From a virus (taxonomy: Duplodnaviria > Caudoviricetes), in the IMG/VR virus record IMGVR_UViG_3300047290_000095, positions 1 through 27,380 of that record: a DNA stretch of 27,380 bases; one strand, given 5' to 3'. Made by a program: the position numbers and the translations under genes. Numbering within the stretch: position 1 is the stretch's first letter; every line of letters starts with the position of its first letter. This document shows, one piece after another, positions 23 through 7,640 of this stretch. The notes below the pieces were generated by a model that was not told where the DNA came from, made no database searches, and saw only the letters and a list, made by a program, of their open reading frames with translations.

Positions 23-80
23 AACTGCACTGAACGGATAAAACCACTCAGTAAACACCTAACCTAACCTGGAGCATAGT

Positions 81-311
81 ATGCGGAAAATCATTGAATC
101 ATTAACCATTGAGCAAGCATTGCAGTGGGATGCAGCCACTGACAAGTGGGTCTTTATTGATGACACTATCTTGGCTCCGGCTAACCTCAAAGCCAACGGT
201 GCACGGGTTGGAGCCATTGAAGATGCGTTTGTGGCCATAATTGATTTTGAAGTGGCGCGCGATATTGCACGGGAAAATTTAGCAAACCGCCGGATAAGTT
301 ATTGCGCTTGA
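81..311 (+). CDS. Hypothetical early protein (76 aa)
   Basis: ORF directly behind the motif and GGAG RBS. Confidence 0.75.
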   Translation: MRKIIESLTIEQALQWDAATDKWVFIDDTILAPANLKANGARVGAIEDAFVAIIDFEVARDIARENLANRRISYCA

Positions 312-318
312 GTGACAC

Positions 319-362
319 CTACTAGCCTATTCAGTAGGCTAGTGGATTGTCATTCGACAATC
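319..362 (+). other. Tandem intergenic hairpins
   Basis: ACTAGCCTA 321-329 / TAGGCTAGT 335-343 (perfect 9 bp) and GATTGTC 345-351 / GACAATC 356-362 (perfect 7 bp). Confidence 0.75.
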
Positions 363-385
363 AAAACCTAACCTGGAGAACCACT

Positions 386-730
386 ATGTTTCGCTCACCT
401 TCCGTTACCGCTTTGCGCTCTATCTTTGGTGATAACGCAAAACGTGCTAAAGAGTTGCTCACTATGACAAGAGGGCAGCTTATAAGCACTCCAGAGGGTA
501 AAGCACGGGTTCATGAGTGCTATTACCCGCCGACTACTCAAGACATAAGAATGACGTGCTTGAACGCTTTAGGCGGCTTTCATGGTGTAGAGGGTTTCTC
601 TACATCTAAGGGCGAGTGTTTATACCTTAATGCCGGAGATACTTATACCCCCACCCTTGTTCTACATAATGGCAATTATCGGATTACATGCTGGGGTGAC
701 ATAGCAGAAAAACACGCTACGACTGCATAA
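386..730 (+). CDS. Hypothetical early phage protein (114 aa; start moved from 347 to ATG 386)
   Basis: ATG 386 follows the CTGGAGA RBS; contains YLNAGDTYTPT. Confidence 0.8.
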   Translation: MFRSPSVTALRSIFGDNAKRAKELLTMTRGQLISTPEGKARVHECYYPPTTQDIRMTCLNALGGFHGVEGFSTSKGECLYLNAGDTYTPTLVLHNGNYRITCWGDIAEKHATTA

Positions 731-736
731 CCCACC

Positions 737-781
737 CTGGAGGGCATACCGTGCCCTCTGGAGTGCGCTATCTGGTGCACT
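737..781 (+). other. Tandem intergenic hairpins
   Basis: GAGGGCA 740-746 / TGCCCTC 752-758 and AGTGCGC 762-768 / GTGCACT 775-781; same layout as 319-362. Confidence 0.7.
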
Positions 782-805
782 ACAACCCTAACCCTGGAGA
801 TAACC

Positions 806-1045
806 ATGCAAGCCATTCAAACAAAGTACATTGCACCGACAAACCACCGTGGGTCACGCATCAAAGCATGGTGCGCCGCTGGTTCTAAGACCATCAGTTA
901 CCCTTATGGCCTAACCACTGACCTTGCACACTATGACGCAGCCCAACAATTACTGGTTCAGCTTGGCTGGACAGGTGTTCACTATGGGGCTTTGCATCAA
1001 GGTTGTTTGCCTAATGGCGACTACTGCCATGTGCTGGTGAAATAA
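806..1045 (+). CDS. Hypothetical early phage protein (79 aa)
   Basis: ORF after motif copy 787-802; begins MQAIQTKYIAPTNHRGSRIKA. Confidence 0.8.
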   Translation: MQAIQTKYIAPTNHRGSRIKAWCAAGSKTISYPYGLTTDLAHYDAAQQLLVQLGWTGVHYGALHQGCLPNGDYCHVLVK

Positions 1046-1054
1046 CCCCCTTCC

Positions 1055-1073
1055 AGCCCCTTCTGGGGGCTTT
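1055..1073 (+). terminator. Short GC hairpin, possible weak terminator or processing stem
   Basis: AGCCCC 1055-1060 / GGGGCT 1066-1071, followed by only a short T run. Confidence 0.35.
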
Positions 1074-1102
1074 CCTGCCCCTTTCCTAACCCTGGAGATA
1101 AC

Positions 1103-1222
1103 ATGCAAACCCTAACCGCAGCAGAAATAATGGTTTTGATGAAAAAAGCAAAAACCCTTGAGCAAGCACATGCCCTAGCTGTCCTGCTTTGCCAAACCCT
1201 GAAACATAAATACGGAAAATAA
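1103..1222 (+). CDS. Small hypothetical protein (39 aa, MQTLTAAEIMVLMKKAK...), not in ORF track
   Basis: Hand translation; ATG 1103 behind motif copy 1085-1100; TAA 1220-1222. Confidence 0.7.
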   Translation: MQTLTAAEIMVLMKKAKTLEQAHALAVLLCQTLKHKYGK

Positions 1223-1252
1223 GCCCCAACCCCTAACCCTGGAGATACCATC

Positions 1253-1432
1253 ATGGAAATCAAAGAGCACTTTGTAGACAACCTGGCAAACCTGACCGAA
1301 TCCCAACTGTGGCAAGTGTCCCGCTACCTTGCCGACTATGTGCAGCATGAAATTACAGCGGGTAAGACCATCGACAAATACACGTTTTTCTGGGCATTTG
1401 ATGCCATTCTCGGAGGTGCATTAGATGATTAA
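1253..1432 (+). CDS. Small hypothetical protein (59 aa, MEIKEHFVDNLANL...), not in ORF track
   Basis: Hand translation; ATG 1253 behind motif copy 1232-1247; stop overlaps the next gene by 8 nt. Confidence 0.75.
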   Translation: MEIKEHFVDNLANLTESQLWQVSRYLADYVQHEITAGKTIDKYTFFWAFDAILGGALDD

Positions 1433-1619
1433 GATAAAGCCCCAAGACCTTAACCCCACCACCCGCAGATACCCCCGAACCCTGCAAGAGGCTTTCCCCA
1501 AAGATGACTGGGAAACTGTGGATAAGACTGTGTATAAAGTAAACCCTGATGACGTGCTGTATCTTATAGCCCTATTCAGTCTAGGGTTTTTGCTTGGCTT
1601 GCTTGTGAGTGGCAGTTAA
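1425..1619 (+). CDS. Small membrane-anchored phage protein (64 aa)
   Basis: GGAGG RBS at 1412-1416; TRRYPRTLQEAF motif; C-terminal hydrophobic helix. Confidence 0.8.
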   Translation: MIKIKPQDLNPTTRRYPRTLQEAFPKDDWETVDKTVYKVNPDDVLYLIALFSLGFLLGLLVSGS

Positions 1620-1629
1620 TATCTAGCCC

Positions 1630-1730
1630 GTTGCCGTAGGAAGCGACACAATGAAACCGTTTACTCATGCCCCTGCCCTTGGTATTTGCCTTTGGGTTCC
1701 TACCGGGGGCAGCAGTAAACGGTTTTTTTT
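1630..1730 (+). promoter_or_regulatory. Candidate cis-regulatory RNA: small hairpin plus long bulged hairpin ending in U8 (attenuator/antisense-like)
   Basis: 12-bp stem 1654-1665/1714-1725; 8-bp stem 1668-1675/1704-1711; 7-nt bulge TTCCTAC (1697-1703) complementary to loop GTAGGAA (1636-1642); T8 at 1723-1730. Confidence 0.65.
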
Positions 1731-2019
1731 CGCCCCTACGACAACCGCACCCCTGGCGATACTAAGTGCCCATGACTGTGGCAGCGAGGGAGGAAAGCGG
1801 TTCACCTTGACCCAAGGGGGACGGGTGCACGAGGGTTCTGCCCCAAGTGATAAACGAACATGTAGGCTGATGGTCAACCGTGGCAACTACGGAATAGTTG
1901 GTTCGATAAATAAAGCAGCAGAACTGTATACGGGTGTATGCCCCATACAGGACAGCCCCAAGGCTGAAAGTAGGACACTGACTAATCATCATCCCTACCG
2001 TAGCCCTTGTATTGTCTGA
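1651..2019 (+). CDS. Possible leader ORF (122 aa) spanning the structured region
   Basis: AGGA 9 nt upstream; fills the gap and stops right at the MTase RBS. No recognisable protein features, so it may be spurious. Confidence 0.3.
   Translation: MKPFTHAPALGICLWVPTGGSSKRFFFAPTTTAPLAILSAHDCGSEGGKRFTLTQGGRVHEGSAPSDKRTCRLMVNRGNYGIVGSINKAAELYTGVCPIQDSPKAESRTLTNHHPYRSPCIV
1740..2016 (+). ncRNA. Candidate large multi-branched structured RNA (~280 nt), family unknown
   Basis: Nine or more mutually nested helices found by eye (listed in findings). Confidence 0.45.
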
Positions 2020-2028
2020 AAGGATTGC

Positions 2029-3024
2029 ATGAATGAGTTGGCTTTATTCGCAGGTGCTGGTGGAGGAATTCTTGGGGGACAGCTCCTTGGATGGCGAACA
2101 GTCTGTGCCGTTGAGTGGGAACCATACCCAGCAAGCGTACTGTGCGCCCGACAAAATGATGGACTTCTCCCGCCTTTCCCGATTTGGGATGACATACAAA
2201 CCTTTGACGGCAACCCGTGGAGAGGAATTGTTGATGTCGTATCTGGCGGCTTTCCATGTACCGACATCAGCGCAGCAGGAAAGGGGGCAGGAATTGACGG
2301 AGAAGCCTCTGGAATGTGGCGAGAAATGGCGAGGGTCATTTGTGAAGTACGACCCCGATTCGTCTTTGTGGAGAACTCACCAATGCTCACTTCTAGGGGA
2401 CTTGGACGAGTTCTTGGAGACTTGGCCTCAATGGGGTTTGATGCGAGATGGGGAGTGCTGGGAGCAGCAGACGTTGGAGCGCCACATCAGAGGGACAGGA
2501 TATGGATTGTCGCCCAACAACATAGACAGCTTTCACACGCCCAACACAACAGGATTAGACGGTGGGAGCAACAGTCGCAGGGCATTGAAGAAAAGAATCC
2601 AAATGTGGAGAACACCAGACACAGGAGTGGGGGGGACAAGCGGATTGCTGAAAGAGGGCAAAACCCACAGGGAGAATGGGCAACCCATTCAAATCAGATT
2701 GGTAGACCAGGTGAACAATCCGCATCTATGGCCAACACCATGTTCAACAGACTACAAGGGGTCAGGCAAGACAGGGCAACTCAGGGACAGGTTGGACTAT
2801 GCGGTGGAGAGGGGAGCAACCAAGTCCAAGACTTATGGGGAACAGCATCTTACTGGTCAACTGAACCCTCCATTCCCCGAGTGGCTGATGGGGTGGCCGC
2901 TAGGGTGGACAGACTTAAAGCCATTGGAAATGGACAAGTCCCATTGTGTGCAGCAACCGCATGGAGAATCTTAAATGAACGTACAGCAAGCCCAACGTAT
3001 CCTAGCCCGACACAAAGAGGGTGA
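2029..3024 (+). CDS. C5 cytosine DNA methyltransferase, alpha (catalytic) polypeptide
   Basis: Motif I FAGAGG, IV GGFPC, VI ENSP, VIII HQRDRIW, X RLKAIGNGQVP; no motif IX in this frame. Confidence 0.92.
   Translation: MNELALFAGAGGGILGGQLLGWRTVCAVEWEPYPASVLCARQNDGLLPPFPIWDDIQTFDGNPWRGIVDVVSGGFPCTDISAAGKGAGIDGEASGMWREMARVICEVRPRFVFVENSPMLTSRGLGRVLGDLASMGFDARWGVLGAADVGAPHQRDRIWIVAQQHRQLSHAQHNRIRRWEQQSQGIEEKNPNVENTRHRSGGDKRIAERGQNPQGEWATHSNQIGRPGEQSASMANTMFNRLQGVRQDRATQGQVGLCGGEGSNQVQDLWGTASYWSTEPSIPRVADGVAARVDRLKAIGNGQVPLCAATAWRILNERTASPTYPSPTQRG
2033..2974 (+). CDS. C5 methyltransferase beta-type polypeptide in the overlapping +1 frame (TRD-like repeats and motif IX)
   Basis: 313-codon ORF nested in the alpha gene; GQLNPPFPEWLMGWPLGWT resembles motif IX; parallels the M.EcoHK31I alpha/beta arrangement. 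Confidence 0.8.
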   Translation: MSWLYSQVLVEEFLGDSSLDGEQSVPLSGNHTQQAYCAPDKMMDFSRLSRFGMTYKPLTATRGEELLMSYLAAFHVPTSAQQERGQELTEKPLECGEKWRGSFVKYDPDSSLWRTHQCSLLGDLDEFLETWPQWGLMRDGECWEQQTLERHIRGTGYGLSPNNIDSFHTPNTTGLDGGSNSRRALKKRIQMWRTPDTGVGGTSGLLKEGKTHRENGQPIQIRLVDQVNNPHLWPTPCSTDYKGSGKTGQLRDRLDYAVERGATKSKTYGEQHLTGQLNPPFPEWLMGWPLGWTDLKPLEMDKSHCVQQPHGES

Positions 3025-3169
3025 TGTTTATCCCCAATGGGTAATCAACACAGCCCTATACATAACAGGAGATATTGATGAAATGCCCACTATGCCAAGC
3101 CCCCACAGCAGTAAAGAGGGTGCAGACAACGAAAGCAAACTGGATTTACAGAAGAAGAGTGTGTTTTAA
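2975..3169 (+). CDS. Hypothetical protein (64 aa)
   Basis: ATG immediately after the beta-frame TAA; GGAGA RBS at 2964-2968; overlaps both neighbours. Confidence 0.55.
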   Translation: MNVQQAQRILARHKEGDVYPQWVINTALYITGDIDEMPTMPSPHSSKEGADNESKLDLQKKSVF

Positions 3170-4687: not shown

Positions 4688-4903
4688 ATGAAATTCTGTA
4701 TCGACTGTAAACATTACATCCTAGAAGATGGAGTGAAAACCCCAGACCTGGGCAGATGTGCCCAAAACCGCTCTATAAGCCTTGTAACAGGCGTAGAAGC
4801 ATCCACCAATACCCTACCCTTCTGCAAGGTACACAGGCTCTCCCACGAGCCTTGTGGCACAGAGGGCAAGCTGTGGGAAGAAAAGGAGGCCAGCCATGTC
4901 TGA
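4688..4903 (+). CDS. Small Cys-rich (Zn-binding) phage protein (71 aa)
   Basis: AAAGGA RBS; CIDCKH...C...C...CG.EGKLWE. Confidence 0.8.
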   Translation: MKFCIDCKHYILEDGVKTPDLGRCAQNRSISLVTGVEASTNTLPFCKVHRLSHEPCGTEGKLWEEKEASHV

Positions 4904-5789
4904 TTTCTCACCAGAAACACGTAATAGCGCATGGTGGTCAGGCGATAGTCGCCGTGCCGCCAGCGGGAAAGCCAACGAAGTCATCCTCACCAAGCAGGGC
5001 AAGATGGAGATTCCAGACCTGTCCGGCATAGAAGCTGTGCAGATGGGTCATGTGATGGAGCCTGTCATTGCAAGCCTTGCCAGCGAGAAACTGGGTGTGC
5101 GGCTGGAGAAGATTGAGGAAGCTCTCACGCACCCTAAACATCCTTGGCTGAAATCACACTTTGACTACCATGGGAAACTCAATGGCGAAACTATCCTGGT
5201 CGAGTGCAAAAACTATAACGCTGCTGTTAGAAGTAAATTTGACGATAGCGGCCTCATCCCTGCTGCTGACATGGCTCAGATTGTCCACGAAGCGGCGGTA
5301 TACGGCATACGGCATATTTATCTGGCTGTGCTATTTGGCGGTCAAGAGTTTGTGCTTATACCGTTCACCATCACTGACGAGCAAAAAGAGGAGCTTATTC
5401 AGCAGATGGCTGTCTACTGGGGACACGTACAGGCCGGAACAGTCCTACCGCCAGAGACTCCTGAACAGGCAAGACTGATTTATCCGACAGGGCTGGAGAA
5501 CACCAAGATGGCCTCCAGGAGCGTGGAAGAAGCCTGCCGCACCCTACAGGTGGTCAAGGGTCAGATAAAGGCTCTAGAAGCCCAGAAAGAGGCTCTGGAG
5601 ACCCTTGTGCAGGGTTACATGGGGGAATGCAACCAGTTAGCTACCTTTGACGGTTCTGTGCTGGCTACGTGGAAGAACGCTAAACACAGTGAGAGGTTTG
5701 ACAGCAAGTTGTTTCAGTCTGCCATGCCGGACGTGTACGAGAAGTTTGTGGTCAACGTCCCAGGTTCACGCCGCTTTTTGGTGAAGTGA
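4896..5789 (+). CDS. YqaJ-like viral recombination nuclease (lambda-exonuclease family)
   Basis: G..MEPVI, HPKHPWL...D, LVECKN, Q...A.V.G motifs; AAGGAGG RBS before ATG 4896; upstream of a RecT-like gene. Confidence 0.85.
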   Translation: MSDFSPETRNSAWWSGDSRRAASGKANEVILTKQGKMEIPDLSGIEAVQMGHVMEPVIASLASEKLGVRLEKIEEALTHPKHPWLKSHFDYHGKLNGETILVECKNYNAAVRSKFDDSGLIPAADMAQIVHEAAVYGIRHIYLAVLFGGQEFVLIPFTITDEQKEELIQQMAVYWGHVQAGTVLPPETPEQARLIYPTGLENTKMASRSVEEACRTLQVVKGQIKALEAQKEALETLVQGYMGECNQLATFDGSVLATWKNAKHSERFDSKLFQSAMPDVYEKFVVNVPGSRRFLVK

Positions 5790-5796
5790 GGTAGAT

Positions 5797-6021
5797 ATGC
5801 AATTCTTTAAACCACAATCCACAAAAAATGTTGCCGATGCTATGAATAGGTCAATCAAGTCCTATGAGCAAGCTGAGGATAAAGATGATTTTTGTAATCC
5901 AGATGTGCCGTTGCTCATACTGATTAACGGCAAAAGACACCACGTTCTCAGCGTTGGTGGCGACCCTAAAGAAGAGGGGCTTATCTTAGAGGTCAAACCT
6001 GCATCATGGTGGAACAAATGA
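5797..6021 (+). CDS. Hypothetical protein (74 aa)
   Basis: GAGGT RBS; ATGA overlap with the next gene. Confidence 0.7.
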   Translation: MQFFKPQSTKNVADAMNRSIKSYEQAEDKDDFCNPDVPLLILINGKRHHVLSVGGDPKEEGLILEVKPASWWNK

Positions 6022-6239
6022 AAGCCTATCCCTTCATTCACAAGCACCCCACCACTGGCAACACCACGATGGCAGAGGGCGCAGATTTGCGTGACATATT
6101 TGCGGCAAAGGCTATGCAATCGTTGTTATCAGACTCAGGCTGGCGACAAGACATGGACTTTGATGAAACAGCTAGTGCGTCATACAGACAAGCAGACGCA
6201 ATGATGAAGGCCAGGGAGGTCAAGCATGACCAACCTTAG
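6018..6239 (+). CDS. Conserved small phage protein (LRDxFAAKAMQ type)
   Basis: AYP...G.DLRDIFAAKAMQ...SY..ADAMMKARE pattern; start at the ATGA overlap at 6018. Confidence 0.8.
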   Translation: MKAYPFIHKHPTTGNTTMAEGADLRDIFAAKAMQSLLSDSGWRQDMDFDETASASYRQADAMMKAREVKHDQP

Positions 6240-6306
6240 CATTTACATCATGGCCTTTTGTTCCCTGATTGACCTAACCATAACTGTATTGGAAAAACTA
6301 CTATGA
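6226..6306 (+). CDS. 26-aa hydrophobic micropeptide MTNLSIYIMAFCSLIDLTITVLEKLL
   Basis: GGAGGT RBS at 6215-6220; its TGA overlaps the recT-like ATG. Confidence 0.55.
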   Translation: MTNLSIYIMAFCSLIDLTITVLEKLL

Positions 6307-7160
6307 GCAACATCGTTCCACTCGCAGACATTCAGAAGATGGCAGAGGTTGCTGCCACCAGCAAGATGTTTGGGTTTAAGAACCCGCAAGAGGCTATGGC
6401 AATCATGTTGCTGTGCCAAGCAGAGAACCTGCACCCGGCAATAGCCATGCGGGATTTTCATGTCATCCAGGGCCGTCCAGCTCTGAAAGCAGATGCAATG
6501 CTTGCAAGGTTCCAGCAAGCTGGTGGAAAAGTTGAATGGAAGGTGTACACAGATGCTGAAGTTACTGGAGTATTTAGCCACCCTCAAGGCGGTTCGCTTG
6601 AGGTCACTTGGACGCTCTCCCAGGCGAAATCTATCGGTATCGCCAATAAGGATAACTGGAAGAACTATCCGCGTGCAATGCTTAGAGCACGGTGTTTATC
6701 GGAGGGTATCCGTGCGGTCTATCCGGGTTGCGTGGTTGGGGTATACACACCCGAGGAAGTACAAGACTTTGAACCCCGCAAGACAGTTGATATGGGAACA
6801 GCAGAACGTGTTGATGAAGTCTCGGAAGTTGTGGGAGTGGAAGTGGCAGATGGGGCATTTCACCTCTACGTCCCAGGCTCTGACAAACCCTACGCCAGCT
6901 ACCACAGCACAGACGAATGGATAGAGGGCTACTGCTCTCTTGTCCACCGCATCTCTGTCTCGCCTAAATTCAGCGATGAAGAGAAGGCTCTGAAGCTGTC
7001 GGCATTGCAGAGCGTAAACATAATCGTCACTGCTGAGTTTGACAGCTTCACCAACATCAAGTTGAAAGGTGAGATTGTGAAAGCTGGTGGGAGTATCAAC
7101 ACCCCAAAGTCAGAACCCCTGCCACCAACAGGTTCGGAACTCAACGAGCCAGTATTTTGA
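6303..7160 (+). CDS. recT: RecT/Red-beta-like single-strand annealing protein
   Basis: HVIQGRPAL, W...A...G....NWKNYPRAML.AR..S...R..YP....G.YTPEE motifs; next to the YqaJ-like nuclease. Confidence 0.8.
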   Translation: MSNIVPLADIQKMAEVAATSKMFGFKNPQEAMAIMLLCQAENLHPAIAMRDFHVIQGRPALKADAMLARFQQAGGKVEWKVYTDAEVTGVFSHPQGGSLEVTWTLSQAKSIGIANKDNWKNYPRAMLRARCLSEGIRAVYPGCVVGVYTPEEVQDFEPRKTVDMGTAERVDEVSEVVGVEVADGAFHLYVPGSDKPYASYHSTDEWIEGYCSLVHRISVSPKFSDEEKALKLSALQSVNIIVTAEFDSFTNIKLKGEIVKAGGSINTPKSEPLPPTGSELNEPVF

Positions 7161-7345
7161 ATCACTTGGAAAACATCGGGCCGATAACACCTAGAGAGGC
7201 ACTAGACAACTATGGCAGCTTCAGGCTTGCGGCACATATCGAATATCTCAGGCGGCAGGGATACCCAATCCACACTTCAATGGTTTCTCAAGGTGGCAAA
7301 GACTTTGCCAGTTACTCACTACGAAAGGAAAGAAATGGCCTCTAA
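7157..7345 (+). CDS. Small winged-HTH protein
   Basis: GPITPREAL..YG.FRLAAHI..LR..GY.I.T pattern; TTG start uncertain. Confidence 0.75.
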   Translation: MNHLENIGPITPREALDNYGSFRLAAHIEYLRRQGYPIHTSMVSQGGKDFASYSLRKERNGL

Positions 7346-7640
7346 TCCACATCAAGAACAACCCGGCATGGGTGTCTGCTACTGGGAGGAAGAATCCCAG
7401 CGCAAGTCACCCAAAGGCCCAGACTACAAAGGCTTTGTGGTTCTGGAAATGGACTACAAAGCAGGAGAGAAACTCAAGCTGGCTATCTGGCAAAAGCCTA
7501 CCAGCCGGGGCTATCCTTTGCTGGCGGTGAAGGAAGACAACTGGCTTAAGAAGAAGAAGCTGGAAGAGGGCAGACCTACAGAGGTCAAGCCAGCTTATGC
7601 CAAGTACAAAGATGATGACGAAAATTCGATTCCCTTTTGA
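7335..7640 (+). CDS. SSB-like protein (start moved to ATG 7335)
   Basis: AAAGGA RBS; K.PDYKG and L..W.K motifs; acidic C-terminus DDDENSIPF. Confidence 0.7.
   Translation: MASNPHQEQPGMGVCYWEEESQRKSPKGPDYKGFVVLEMDYKAGEKLKLAIWQKPTSRGYPLLAVKEDNWLKKKKLEEGRPTEVKPAYAKYKDDDENSIPF

Follow-up and report, generated by a model that had tools for sequence, protein, structure and literature searches.

Genes at the Locus

The window (the whole stretch of DNA analyzed, 27,380 bases) is a linear virus record that is 79% complete. Its left 10 kb form an early arm on the plus strand, which codes for small genes, a methyltransferase in two frames, RecE-like and RecT-like proteins and an HNH nuclease. On the minus strand, the remainder of the window carries genes for lysis, tail and head (assigned by PHROGs). 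The main features are as follows:

1425..1619, plus strand: small gene without an assigned function that delimits the slot on the left (cluster c36, found in 8 of 21 records)
1594..1622, plus strand: likely sigma-70 promoter (TTGGCT, 17 nt, TAATAT), recognized from the sequence
1630..1730, plus strand: pseudoknotted leader ("switch") of about 100 nt, ending in eight T
1745..1802, plus strand: 5' domain of the RNA (from covariation), common to the sister modules B and G
1803..2009, plus strand: core of the RNA (from covariation, alignment and RNAalifold)
2029-3024 and 2033-2974, plus strand: cytosine methyltransferase in two frames (PHROGs 363 and 1008)
2975..3169, plus strand: small gene c37, right edge of the slot; 34 of the 72 distinct regions downstream of the RNA begin with it
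4896..7640, plus strand: recombination module downstream of the element (RecE-like exonuclease, RecT-like annealing protein, likely SSB)

The two methyltransferase frames have start codons 4 nt apart, and each matches methyltransferase PHROGs. The methyltransferase is an insertion and lies outside the RNA element; among 72 other regions downstream of the RNA, only 2 start with it. An Atlas look-up returned no family for the small right-hand gene c37. The assignment of the SSB (DUF736-like, with an acidic tail) is a lead only, taken from an Atlas neighbor with DUF736 on 10% of its members. Two further observations concern the far left of the early arm. An AACC(C/T)GGAG-type repeat occurs at 66, 370, 790, 1088 and 1235 (window 60-1250), ahead of each early gene, and a short perfect hairpin is found at 319-345.

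The preliminary description of this DNA had pointed out that initiator, helicase, primase and polymerase genes are lacking. A PHROGs scan of the 53 ORFs in this 79% complete record bears this out, as none of the four is found.

Promoter and Leader

Of the 23 aligned copies that extend to the promoter position, 15 have TTGAC there. The promoter of the window has 8 of 12 consensus matches, which is under the scan threshold, and it was therefore missed by the consensus scan. The same scan, which thus misses the likely plus-strand promoter, detects no minus-strand promoter in 1600-2100.

The leader has a 5' hairpin (1630-1647) and a long stem (1654-1725); the hairpin loop (1636-1642) can pair with a bulge in the stem (1697-1703). 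This kissing pairing comprises seven Watson-Crick pairs out of seven in all 23 aligned leaders, among which the loop has 11 different sequences; when loops and bulges are cross-paired as a control, 0% attain seven pairs. The leader is probably terminator-like. It may resemble C4, and it has no match in Rfam, including models of the C4 antisense and int-alpA type.

Copies, Coding Potential and Expression of the Element

Full-length copies of the element, which is referred to as type A, number 170 among 378 records (101 distinct; 62 at 97%). They were gathered by pattern scans of viral and metagenome contigs, to which one annotated phage (MW202753) was added. The other 61 of the 62 copies have 53-95% identity to the window. 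In GTDB genomes, five pattern matches were obtained and none fits the profile, so neither a prophage nor a host is identified. No match to the element is found in 72,556 plasmids, and MW202753 is the single carrier among annotated phages. There, the RNA (32238-32669, equivalent to L001:2972-3403) is annotated in GenBank as a hypothetical protein. Spurious ORFs of this kind may cause the family to escape screens of intergenic regions.

An ORF of 122 codons (1651-2019) runs through the element of the window and is considered spurious. The preliminary description had named codon-type conservation as one pattern that would speak against an RNA. Such a pattern is not seen. The frame is broken, with 24 of the 62 copies differing in length by a non-multiple of three and just 22 of 62 having a plus frame free of stops. 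Conservation at third positions is not reduced (0.82, compared with 0.79 and 0.78). By these measures, the element is non-coding.

Twenty of the 24 runs listed contain part of the element, the RNA runs all with small shares. In each of four metatranscriptomes, one contig lies over the element; for a relative, four of four likewise have one, and three of these have contigs on other genes as well. In three runs, RNA contigs continue past the element into the gene that follows. The runs were preselected by the element's own words and consist of contigs only, so they are silent on ends, strand and level.

A search of Rfam (4227 families, E up to 1) returned no match for the window element, including ribozymes, ARRPOF, GEBRO, PAGEV, GOLLD and ROOL. 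No description of this RNA was found in the literature searched, which consisted mostly of open-access journals. Fragments of the element could be among the candidates of Fremin 2023, which in the part of that source available are up to 151 nt long. Most likely, the element represents an uncatalogued class of large pseudoknotted RNAs.

Fold of the RNA

Single-sequence folding is no better than that of shuffled sequences (z = 0.00 for the plus strand and -1.15 for the minus strand). The comparison with shuffled controls proposed in the preliminary description thus yields no excess stability. The lone sequence is uninformative, and the case for a fold rests on relatives. Collecting homologs and analyzing covariation, also proposed there, proved rewarding: the 62 sequences show conserved pairing. 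They were aligned with MAFFT and evaluated by a G-test against a home-made tree-based null with 40 simulations (not with R-scape). Fourteen pairs covary at E up to 0.05, and every one is a base pair in 95-100% of the sequences. A 74-pair model was derived from the covarying pairs. Its pairing amounts to 90.4% (34-40% in slid controls), and 43 of the 74 pairs show double changes. The model of the preliminary description is 81.7% paired on the same alignment. The predicted fold, which may contain up to five crossing (pseudoknot) helices, has the following parts, all on the plus strand:

1746-48/1756-58: helix of the 5' domain
1751-54/1787-90: first pseudoknot of the 5' domain
1755-1762: lone pair of the 5' domain
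1767-70/1780-83: hairpin of the 5' domain
1774-78/1798-1802: second pseudoknot of the 5' domain
1803-05/1825-27: core helix
1813-1823/1999-2009: predicted 3' closing helix between a G-tract and the 3' end, both invariant; RNAalifold independently agrees
1828-35/1842-49: hairpin, the loop of which (1837-41) pairs with 1918-22 (loop-to-junction pseudoknot)
1855-59/1901-05: core helix
1862-71/1988-98: long-range helix
1884-1900, 1924-1950 and 1953-1966: variable hairpins

The pairs of the 5' domain hold in 24 type-B and 12 type-G variants, which were chosen by sequence pattern; the lone pair is present in 23/24 and 12/12. The 3' closing helix is devoid of covariation support because its sequence never varies. 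In total, 56 alignment columns are invariant within the element, and the invariant unpaired segments of the core are GAUAAAC, GAUAAAUAAAGCA and AUCAUCAUC.

Ten helices had been put forward in the preliminary description. All are complementary, but as a secondary structure, the proposal holds only in part, with three helices failing and the others being supported, reassigned or in competition. The helix 1855-59/1901-05 is 100% paired with double changes at four of its five pairs. Double changes are also seen in 1884-89/1895-1900, 1924-29/1945-50 and 1953-57/1962-66, where pairing of 57-71% is attributed to alignment slippage. For 1838-41/1918-21, the pairing stands (100%, double changes at 4/4 pairs), but the helix is not nested, as it forms the loop-to-junction pseudoknot. 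The near-invariant helix 1805-09/1813-17 is retained as a competitor of the longer pairing 1813-18/2004-09, and 1970-74/1994-98 as one of two options for 1994-98, the rival partner of which (1862-66) covaries better. The outer closing helix 1740-44/2012-16 is lost, being only 60.6% paired. In 1747-52/1823-28, double changes are absent and the pair 1750-1825 is broken in 34 of 62 copies. The helix 1829-37/2002-10 is broken where positions vary, and 1828-35 pairs locally instead, with 1842-49.

Both 1994-98 and 1813-17 have a local and a distant partner. For 1994-98, the distant partner is best in 7/8 sequence classes and the local one (1970-74) in 4/8. Since each of the two segments has two candidate partners, a two-state fold switch at the 3' part is possible.

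In 54 core pairs, G-U combinations fill 163 cells and A-C combinations 9. This asymmetry fixes the plus strand and favors RNA. It bears on the proposal that the structure forms in single-stranded DNA, as a primosome-assembly signal or single-strand origin. Covariation is blind to the difference between RNA and single-stranded DNA, as stated for plasmid motifs in the accessible part of PMC5737381, and module D (see below) is followed by inverted DnaA boxes, which would suit such a signal. The G-U excess, the promoter and U-tract leader upstream, and hairpins closed by GNRA loops (in 5 of 62 copies) speak against it, and we hold a DNA structure to be extremely unlikely.

The preliminary description also raised a ribozyme. 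We found nothing specific in its favor. An RNA that generates a primer end by self-cleavage or by nicking DNA would be in keeping with the size, the crossing helices and the many invariant columns. It is very improbable given that no Rfam ribozyme matches at E up to 1 and that the slot houses at least six unrelated or partly related modules, which argues against a single common chemistry. What is supported from the preliminary description is a large, undescribed structured ncRNA behind a switch; covariation, frame-breaking indels, the predominance of G-U over A-C and the lack of an Rfam match all agree with it.

Contents of the Slot in Related Phages

A scan with the leader yielded 119 loci. 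Of these, 71 have 450 nt downstream and 69 are distinct. In 68 of the 69, the leader is followed by a non-coding module; in the remaining one, a gene is inserted between the leader and the module. Type A accounts for 5 of the 69, and a full initiator after a leader of the window's type for none. The modules fall into at least six classes, unrelated or partly related; the 5' domain of type A recurs in types B and G. One class is the Betaproteobacteria-1 RNA (Rfam RF02932), which follows the same leader with 93-104 bits in 3 of the 10 loci that were scanned (gathering threshold 49.4 bits); the window element does not match this family. At least five further modules of 200-400 nt are uncatalogued, non-coding and Rfam-negative where scanned. 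Example loci are:

L176:1678-1930, L015:5368-5640, L518 and L554: types B and G
L205 and L184: type D
L431 and L471: type E
L430 and L556: type F

Several details of the modules were noted along the way. In type D, the GATAAAC motif of type A recurs, and the module ends in inverted DnaA boxes. At L185:2067-2300 and L619:8962-9170, the Betaproteobacteria-1 RNA continues 3' of the Rfam model for about 60-80 nt of conserved sequence, which, also by eye, is found at the end of type E. Modules B and A occur in tandem behind one leader at L253:1193-1792, which is either an assembly chimera or a recombinant via the common 5' domain. In a few loci (L523, L538, L509 and L020), the first 100-200 nt after the leader hold an additional small structured unit, ahead of the main module.

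Loci were also anchored on RecE (80 loci, 44 of them with 3.5 kb upstream). The slots of these 44 contain D (12), A (10), C (9), B (7) or, in six cases, have no match to the module profiles, which detect only known module types. Two of the six are B variants recognized by eye, one (L216) has another layout, two (L226 and L248) have origin-like DNA and one (L210) has an initiator gene. Thus, 43 of the 44 slots are filled, be it by a module, by an initiator or by origin-like DNA.

L210 is the single locus with an initiator in the slot. No module is present there: a promoter and a kissing-loop leader unlike that of the window precede a complete DUF1376 gene (E 2.5e-24) that contains internal repeats. 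Its flanks are homologs of the marker genes of the window: a homolog of the left-edge gene (1425..1619) stands left of the initiator (E 8e-7), and a c37 homolog sits immediately 3' of it. We take DUF1376 (PF07120, YdaU) to be a replication initiator of the lambda O type; the PHROGs label for the L210 product is primosomal protein. The preliminary description had placed the element at the position of an initiator, and L210, with its initiator between the same two flanking genes, bears this placement out.

The slots of L226 (5180-5400) and L248 (5030-5300) contain DnaA boxes (according to what we take to be the consensus), a common palindrome and AT-rich repeats, which in L248 are five copies with 14-bp spacing. 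No initiator is found among the 14 neighboring ORFs scanned. It is possible that these slots are phage origins that use host DnaA only.

Among phages with a RecE at least 92% identical to that of the window, four loci carry A and six carry B (two lack upstream sequence). Such an exchange between near-identical phages could indicate that the slot is a strong promoter with swappable cargo, the RNA being excised and acting in trans as a scaffold, decoy or counter-defense (GOLLD/ROOL-like). The ornate pseudoknotted fold, the invariant A-rich joiners and the insertion of methyltransferase and anti-restriction genes nearby are compatible with this. Cargo is expected to be absent often, yet nearly every RecE slot is filled; moreover, discrete RNA ends are not seen (contigs only), and a tRNA island does not adjoin. 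A function in trans is therefore improbable.

The gene that follows the type-A RNA begins at a median of 17 nt after it and varies, with 19 clusters among 72 regions. This variability is relevant to a further alternative, a cis-regulatory leader of the recombination operon, with replication starting elsewhere or being recombination-only. Such a leader might be riboswitch-like or resemble put of HK022, which is an antiterminator. The element lies between the terminator-like leader and the next ribosome-binding site, two of its segments have two possible partners each, RNA contigs reach the next gene in three runs, and the PHROG scans name no antiterminator of the N or Q type; all of this would fit. 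An inconstant next gene would not, nor would the lack of a terminator after the RNA and a ribosome-binding site outside the paired region. Regulation also leaves unexplained why an initiator gene or DnaA-box DNA occupies the same slot and why an initiator tail is present (see below). We consider it rather unlikely.

Initiator Remnants and Replication Proteins

Of 16 distinct hits to the last 33 residues of the L210 initiator, 10 are free-standing ORFs behind the type-A RNA, with 3-22 open codons ahead of the match, and this ORF is the first gene in 6 of 72 type-A downstream regions. The C-terminal tail of the initiator thus seems to survive as a mini-gene remnant behind some type-A copies.

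Sister modules are often followed by a headless O-like domain, a C-terminal domain without the N-terminal half. Among the best 80 of 418 confirmed cases, ranked by likeness to the headless form, none of the 75 loci with 450 nt upstream has more than 80 open codons before the motif. A module is found within 1.5 kb of a headless domain in 50 of 54 loci, compared with 0 of 16 for full-length O-like genes and 0 of 16 for DUF1376 genes; the sets cannot be regarded as independent samples, a number of training contigs reappear among the headless loci, the controls comprise few lineages, and the 16 O-like controls are from one lineage with its own DnaB-like helicase. In MW202484, the headless domain is upstream of the leader. 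Headless and DUF1376 proteins match opposite halves of PHROG 9327. The N-terminal part of the O-like protein presumably binds DNA. An AlphaFold model of the full-length protein has a pLDDT of 49, and Foldseek returned no match for it at E up to 0.001. The O-like domain is absent from the 72 distinct type-A downstream regions (50 of which are at least 1.5 kb long).

Nine type-A records are near-complete (92-100%; G001-G008 and MW202753). From 21 records, 1462 ORFs were grouped into 525 clusters, and 148 representatives plus 83 more proteins (63 from other type-A loci) were scanned. Among the proteins scanned, the nine near-complete genomes have no initiator, helicase, primase or polymerase. Only two matches relate to replication: a beta-clamp-like protein and, in a type-B phage, a headless domain. 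The former (PF02767, below cut-off) is encoded in the early arm (L379:8400-9029, L416:3407-4039) in 4 of 21 records, in phages without a polymerase. DnaB_C is found in 0/26 records and the O-like profile in 1/26 (a type-B phage); a DUF1376 query had no match in the genome stretches examined. Small proteins of no assigned function could be initiators.

Some phages with modules C or G seem, by eye, to carry their own primase. In the cultured Acidovorax phage AP1, the Betaproteobacteria-1 RNA (93 bits) lies directly after a primase gene. The AP1 case also gives a hint of a betaproteobacterial host for the phage group.

Origin Signals

The GC-skew check proposed in the preliminary description gave no signal at the slot: cumulative skew does not turn there in 18 genomes, which is a weak test in 35-kb phages. 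Skew at fourfold sites tracks the coding strand throughout and has no side dependence. No conserved DNA signal is found 3' of the RNA in the downstream regions, and no repeat family or iterons in window 1400-2100. The initiator and repeats of a lambda O-type iteron origin are missing from the window, and both are present in L210. Nor was a sign of an antisense RNA seen in the window, within the limits of the promoter scan described above.

DnaA boxes occur in 14/17 type-D modules, 16/49 type-B modules and only 5/91 type-A modules. The left-edge gene of the window contains two matches (1517-1525 and 1529-1537). These were rejected as a functional signal because conservation is absent, with a box up to 200 nt upstream of the leader in only 11/91 type-A loci. 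At the left end of the early arm, a gene-free region of 0.5-1 kb (L379:9932-10620 in G001, and others) has T-runs and AT-rich tracts, with DnaA boxes in 4 of 16 genomes. It is a candidate for an alternative origin and lies mostly outside this window.

Proposed Function

We propose that the element is a cis-acting RNA origin, similar in its logic to ColE1 RNA II, which would make an initiator protein dispensable, and we consider this probable, if well short of assured. Because it occupies the slot of a sister phage's initiator gene and of origin-like DNA in others, the element likely starts replication without an initiator protein. Host RNA polymerase would initiate at 1594-1622, with the frequency of read-through set by the pseudoknotted leader. 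The RNA would fold co-transcriptionally, and its 3' part (1988-2009) could switch between local and long-range partners. In one state, this 3' part might remain hybridized to the template as an R-loop. Host RNase H and Pol I, or PriA, would then prime, and the host helicase would be loaded. In sister phages, the headless initiator domain or DnaA may load the helicase. Replication could be continued in a recombination-dependent mode by RecE/RecT, SSB and a resolvase.

The RNA origin is supported by L210, in which the same left gene, a promoter, a kissing-loop leader, an initiator and the same right gene follow each other without a module. The initiator tail left behind the type-A RNA, the DnaA-box and repeat DNA of L226 and L248, and the modules in the RecE slots (38 of 44 by profile and two more by eye) point in the same direction. 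So do the association of modules with headless domains (not seen in either control), the absence of replication proteins other than the beta-clamp-like protein from type-A genomes, the DnaA boxes of module D, and the position of Betaproteobacteria-1 directly after the primase gene of AP1. ColE1 proves that such logic exists. The proposal is weakened by the lack of a skew switch and of a downstream DNA signal, by the paucity of DnaA boxes in type A, by the single initiator locus with no initiator at the 69 loci with the same leader, and by controls from few lineages. The primases of C/G phages, the arrangement in MW202484 and the tandem in L253 also count against it.

It is tempting to speculate further that a group of freshwater dsDNA phages swapped the DNA-binding half of the initiator for an RNA and has six or more interchangeable, ribozyme-sized folded "RNA initiators" that open the origin, which we regard as possible, yet doubtful. 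The six would be type A of the window, Betaproteobacteria-1 and at least four uncatalogued ones, with the helicase recruited via the headless domain or by no phage protein at all; this enumeration is equally tentative.

The analysis adds an uncatalogued class of large pseudoknotted RNAs and offers a testable function for the orphan Betaproteobacteria-1 RNA and several sister modules. If the proposal is true, these phages copy their DNA via a folded-RNA origin without encoding an initiator, helicase, primase or polymerase. The series would also show a protein function passing to RNA, from initiator to headless domain plus RNA, tail plus RNA, RNA alone and DnaA-box DNA alone. The cassette of promoter, leader and RNA is 450 bp.

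Comparison with Known Systems

Lambda O-type/YdaU initiators are represented by the L210 gene, in the same slot and with the same flanks. The window differs in having an RNA there, and some relatives retain only the C-terminal tail or a headless C-domain.

The R-loop origins of T4 and the promoter-primed origin of T7 are examples of phage replication started by a transcript and continued by recombination. A difference is that both phages encode their own replisome. We know of no conserved folded RNA at these origins, and to our knowledge, folded-RNA origins have so far been known only from plasmids.

The Betaproteobacteria-1 RNA (listed in Rfam as an sRNA) shares the slot and the leader in related phages but differs from the window element in sequence and fold. 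No link of this RNA to replication was found in the literature searched.

GOLLD and ROOL are likewise large ornate phage RNAs with many pseudoknots. According to the part of PMC12286853 available, they are longer (about 580 to more than 800 nt) and often lie beside tRNA islands; the window element is Rfam-negative.

ARRPOF, GEBRO and PAGEV are pseudoknotted plasmid motifs of 220-350 nt in replication-linked regions (PMC5737381, in the part available). In the accessible part of the ARRPOF structure paper (PMC12990946), a plasmid with ARRPOF replicates without its rep gene. These motifs are plasmid-borne and from other hosts, whereas in the phages, an exchange with an initiator gene is directly seen.

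In ColE1, the transcript RNA II, made by the host RNA polymerase, opens the origin and is then cut by RNase H and extended by Pol I (PMC5043065, in the part available, as for the further ColE1 details). The window resembles ColE1 in that an encoded initiator is absent, a promoter-driven ncRNA is present at the presumed origin, and control would lie within the first approximately 110 nt of the transcript (PMC5043065). It differs in being a dsDNA phage with a pseudoknotted RNA of about 280 nt, compared with 550 nt in the plasmid (PMC5043065), and in lacking sequence likeness (Rfam, plasmids). An antisense RNA I is not seen in the window, where the control pairing lies within the leader. The element is not a member of the ColE1 RNA II/RNA I family, and it is the logic of an RNA-started origin that the two would share.
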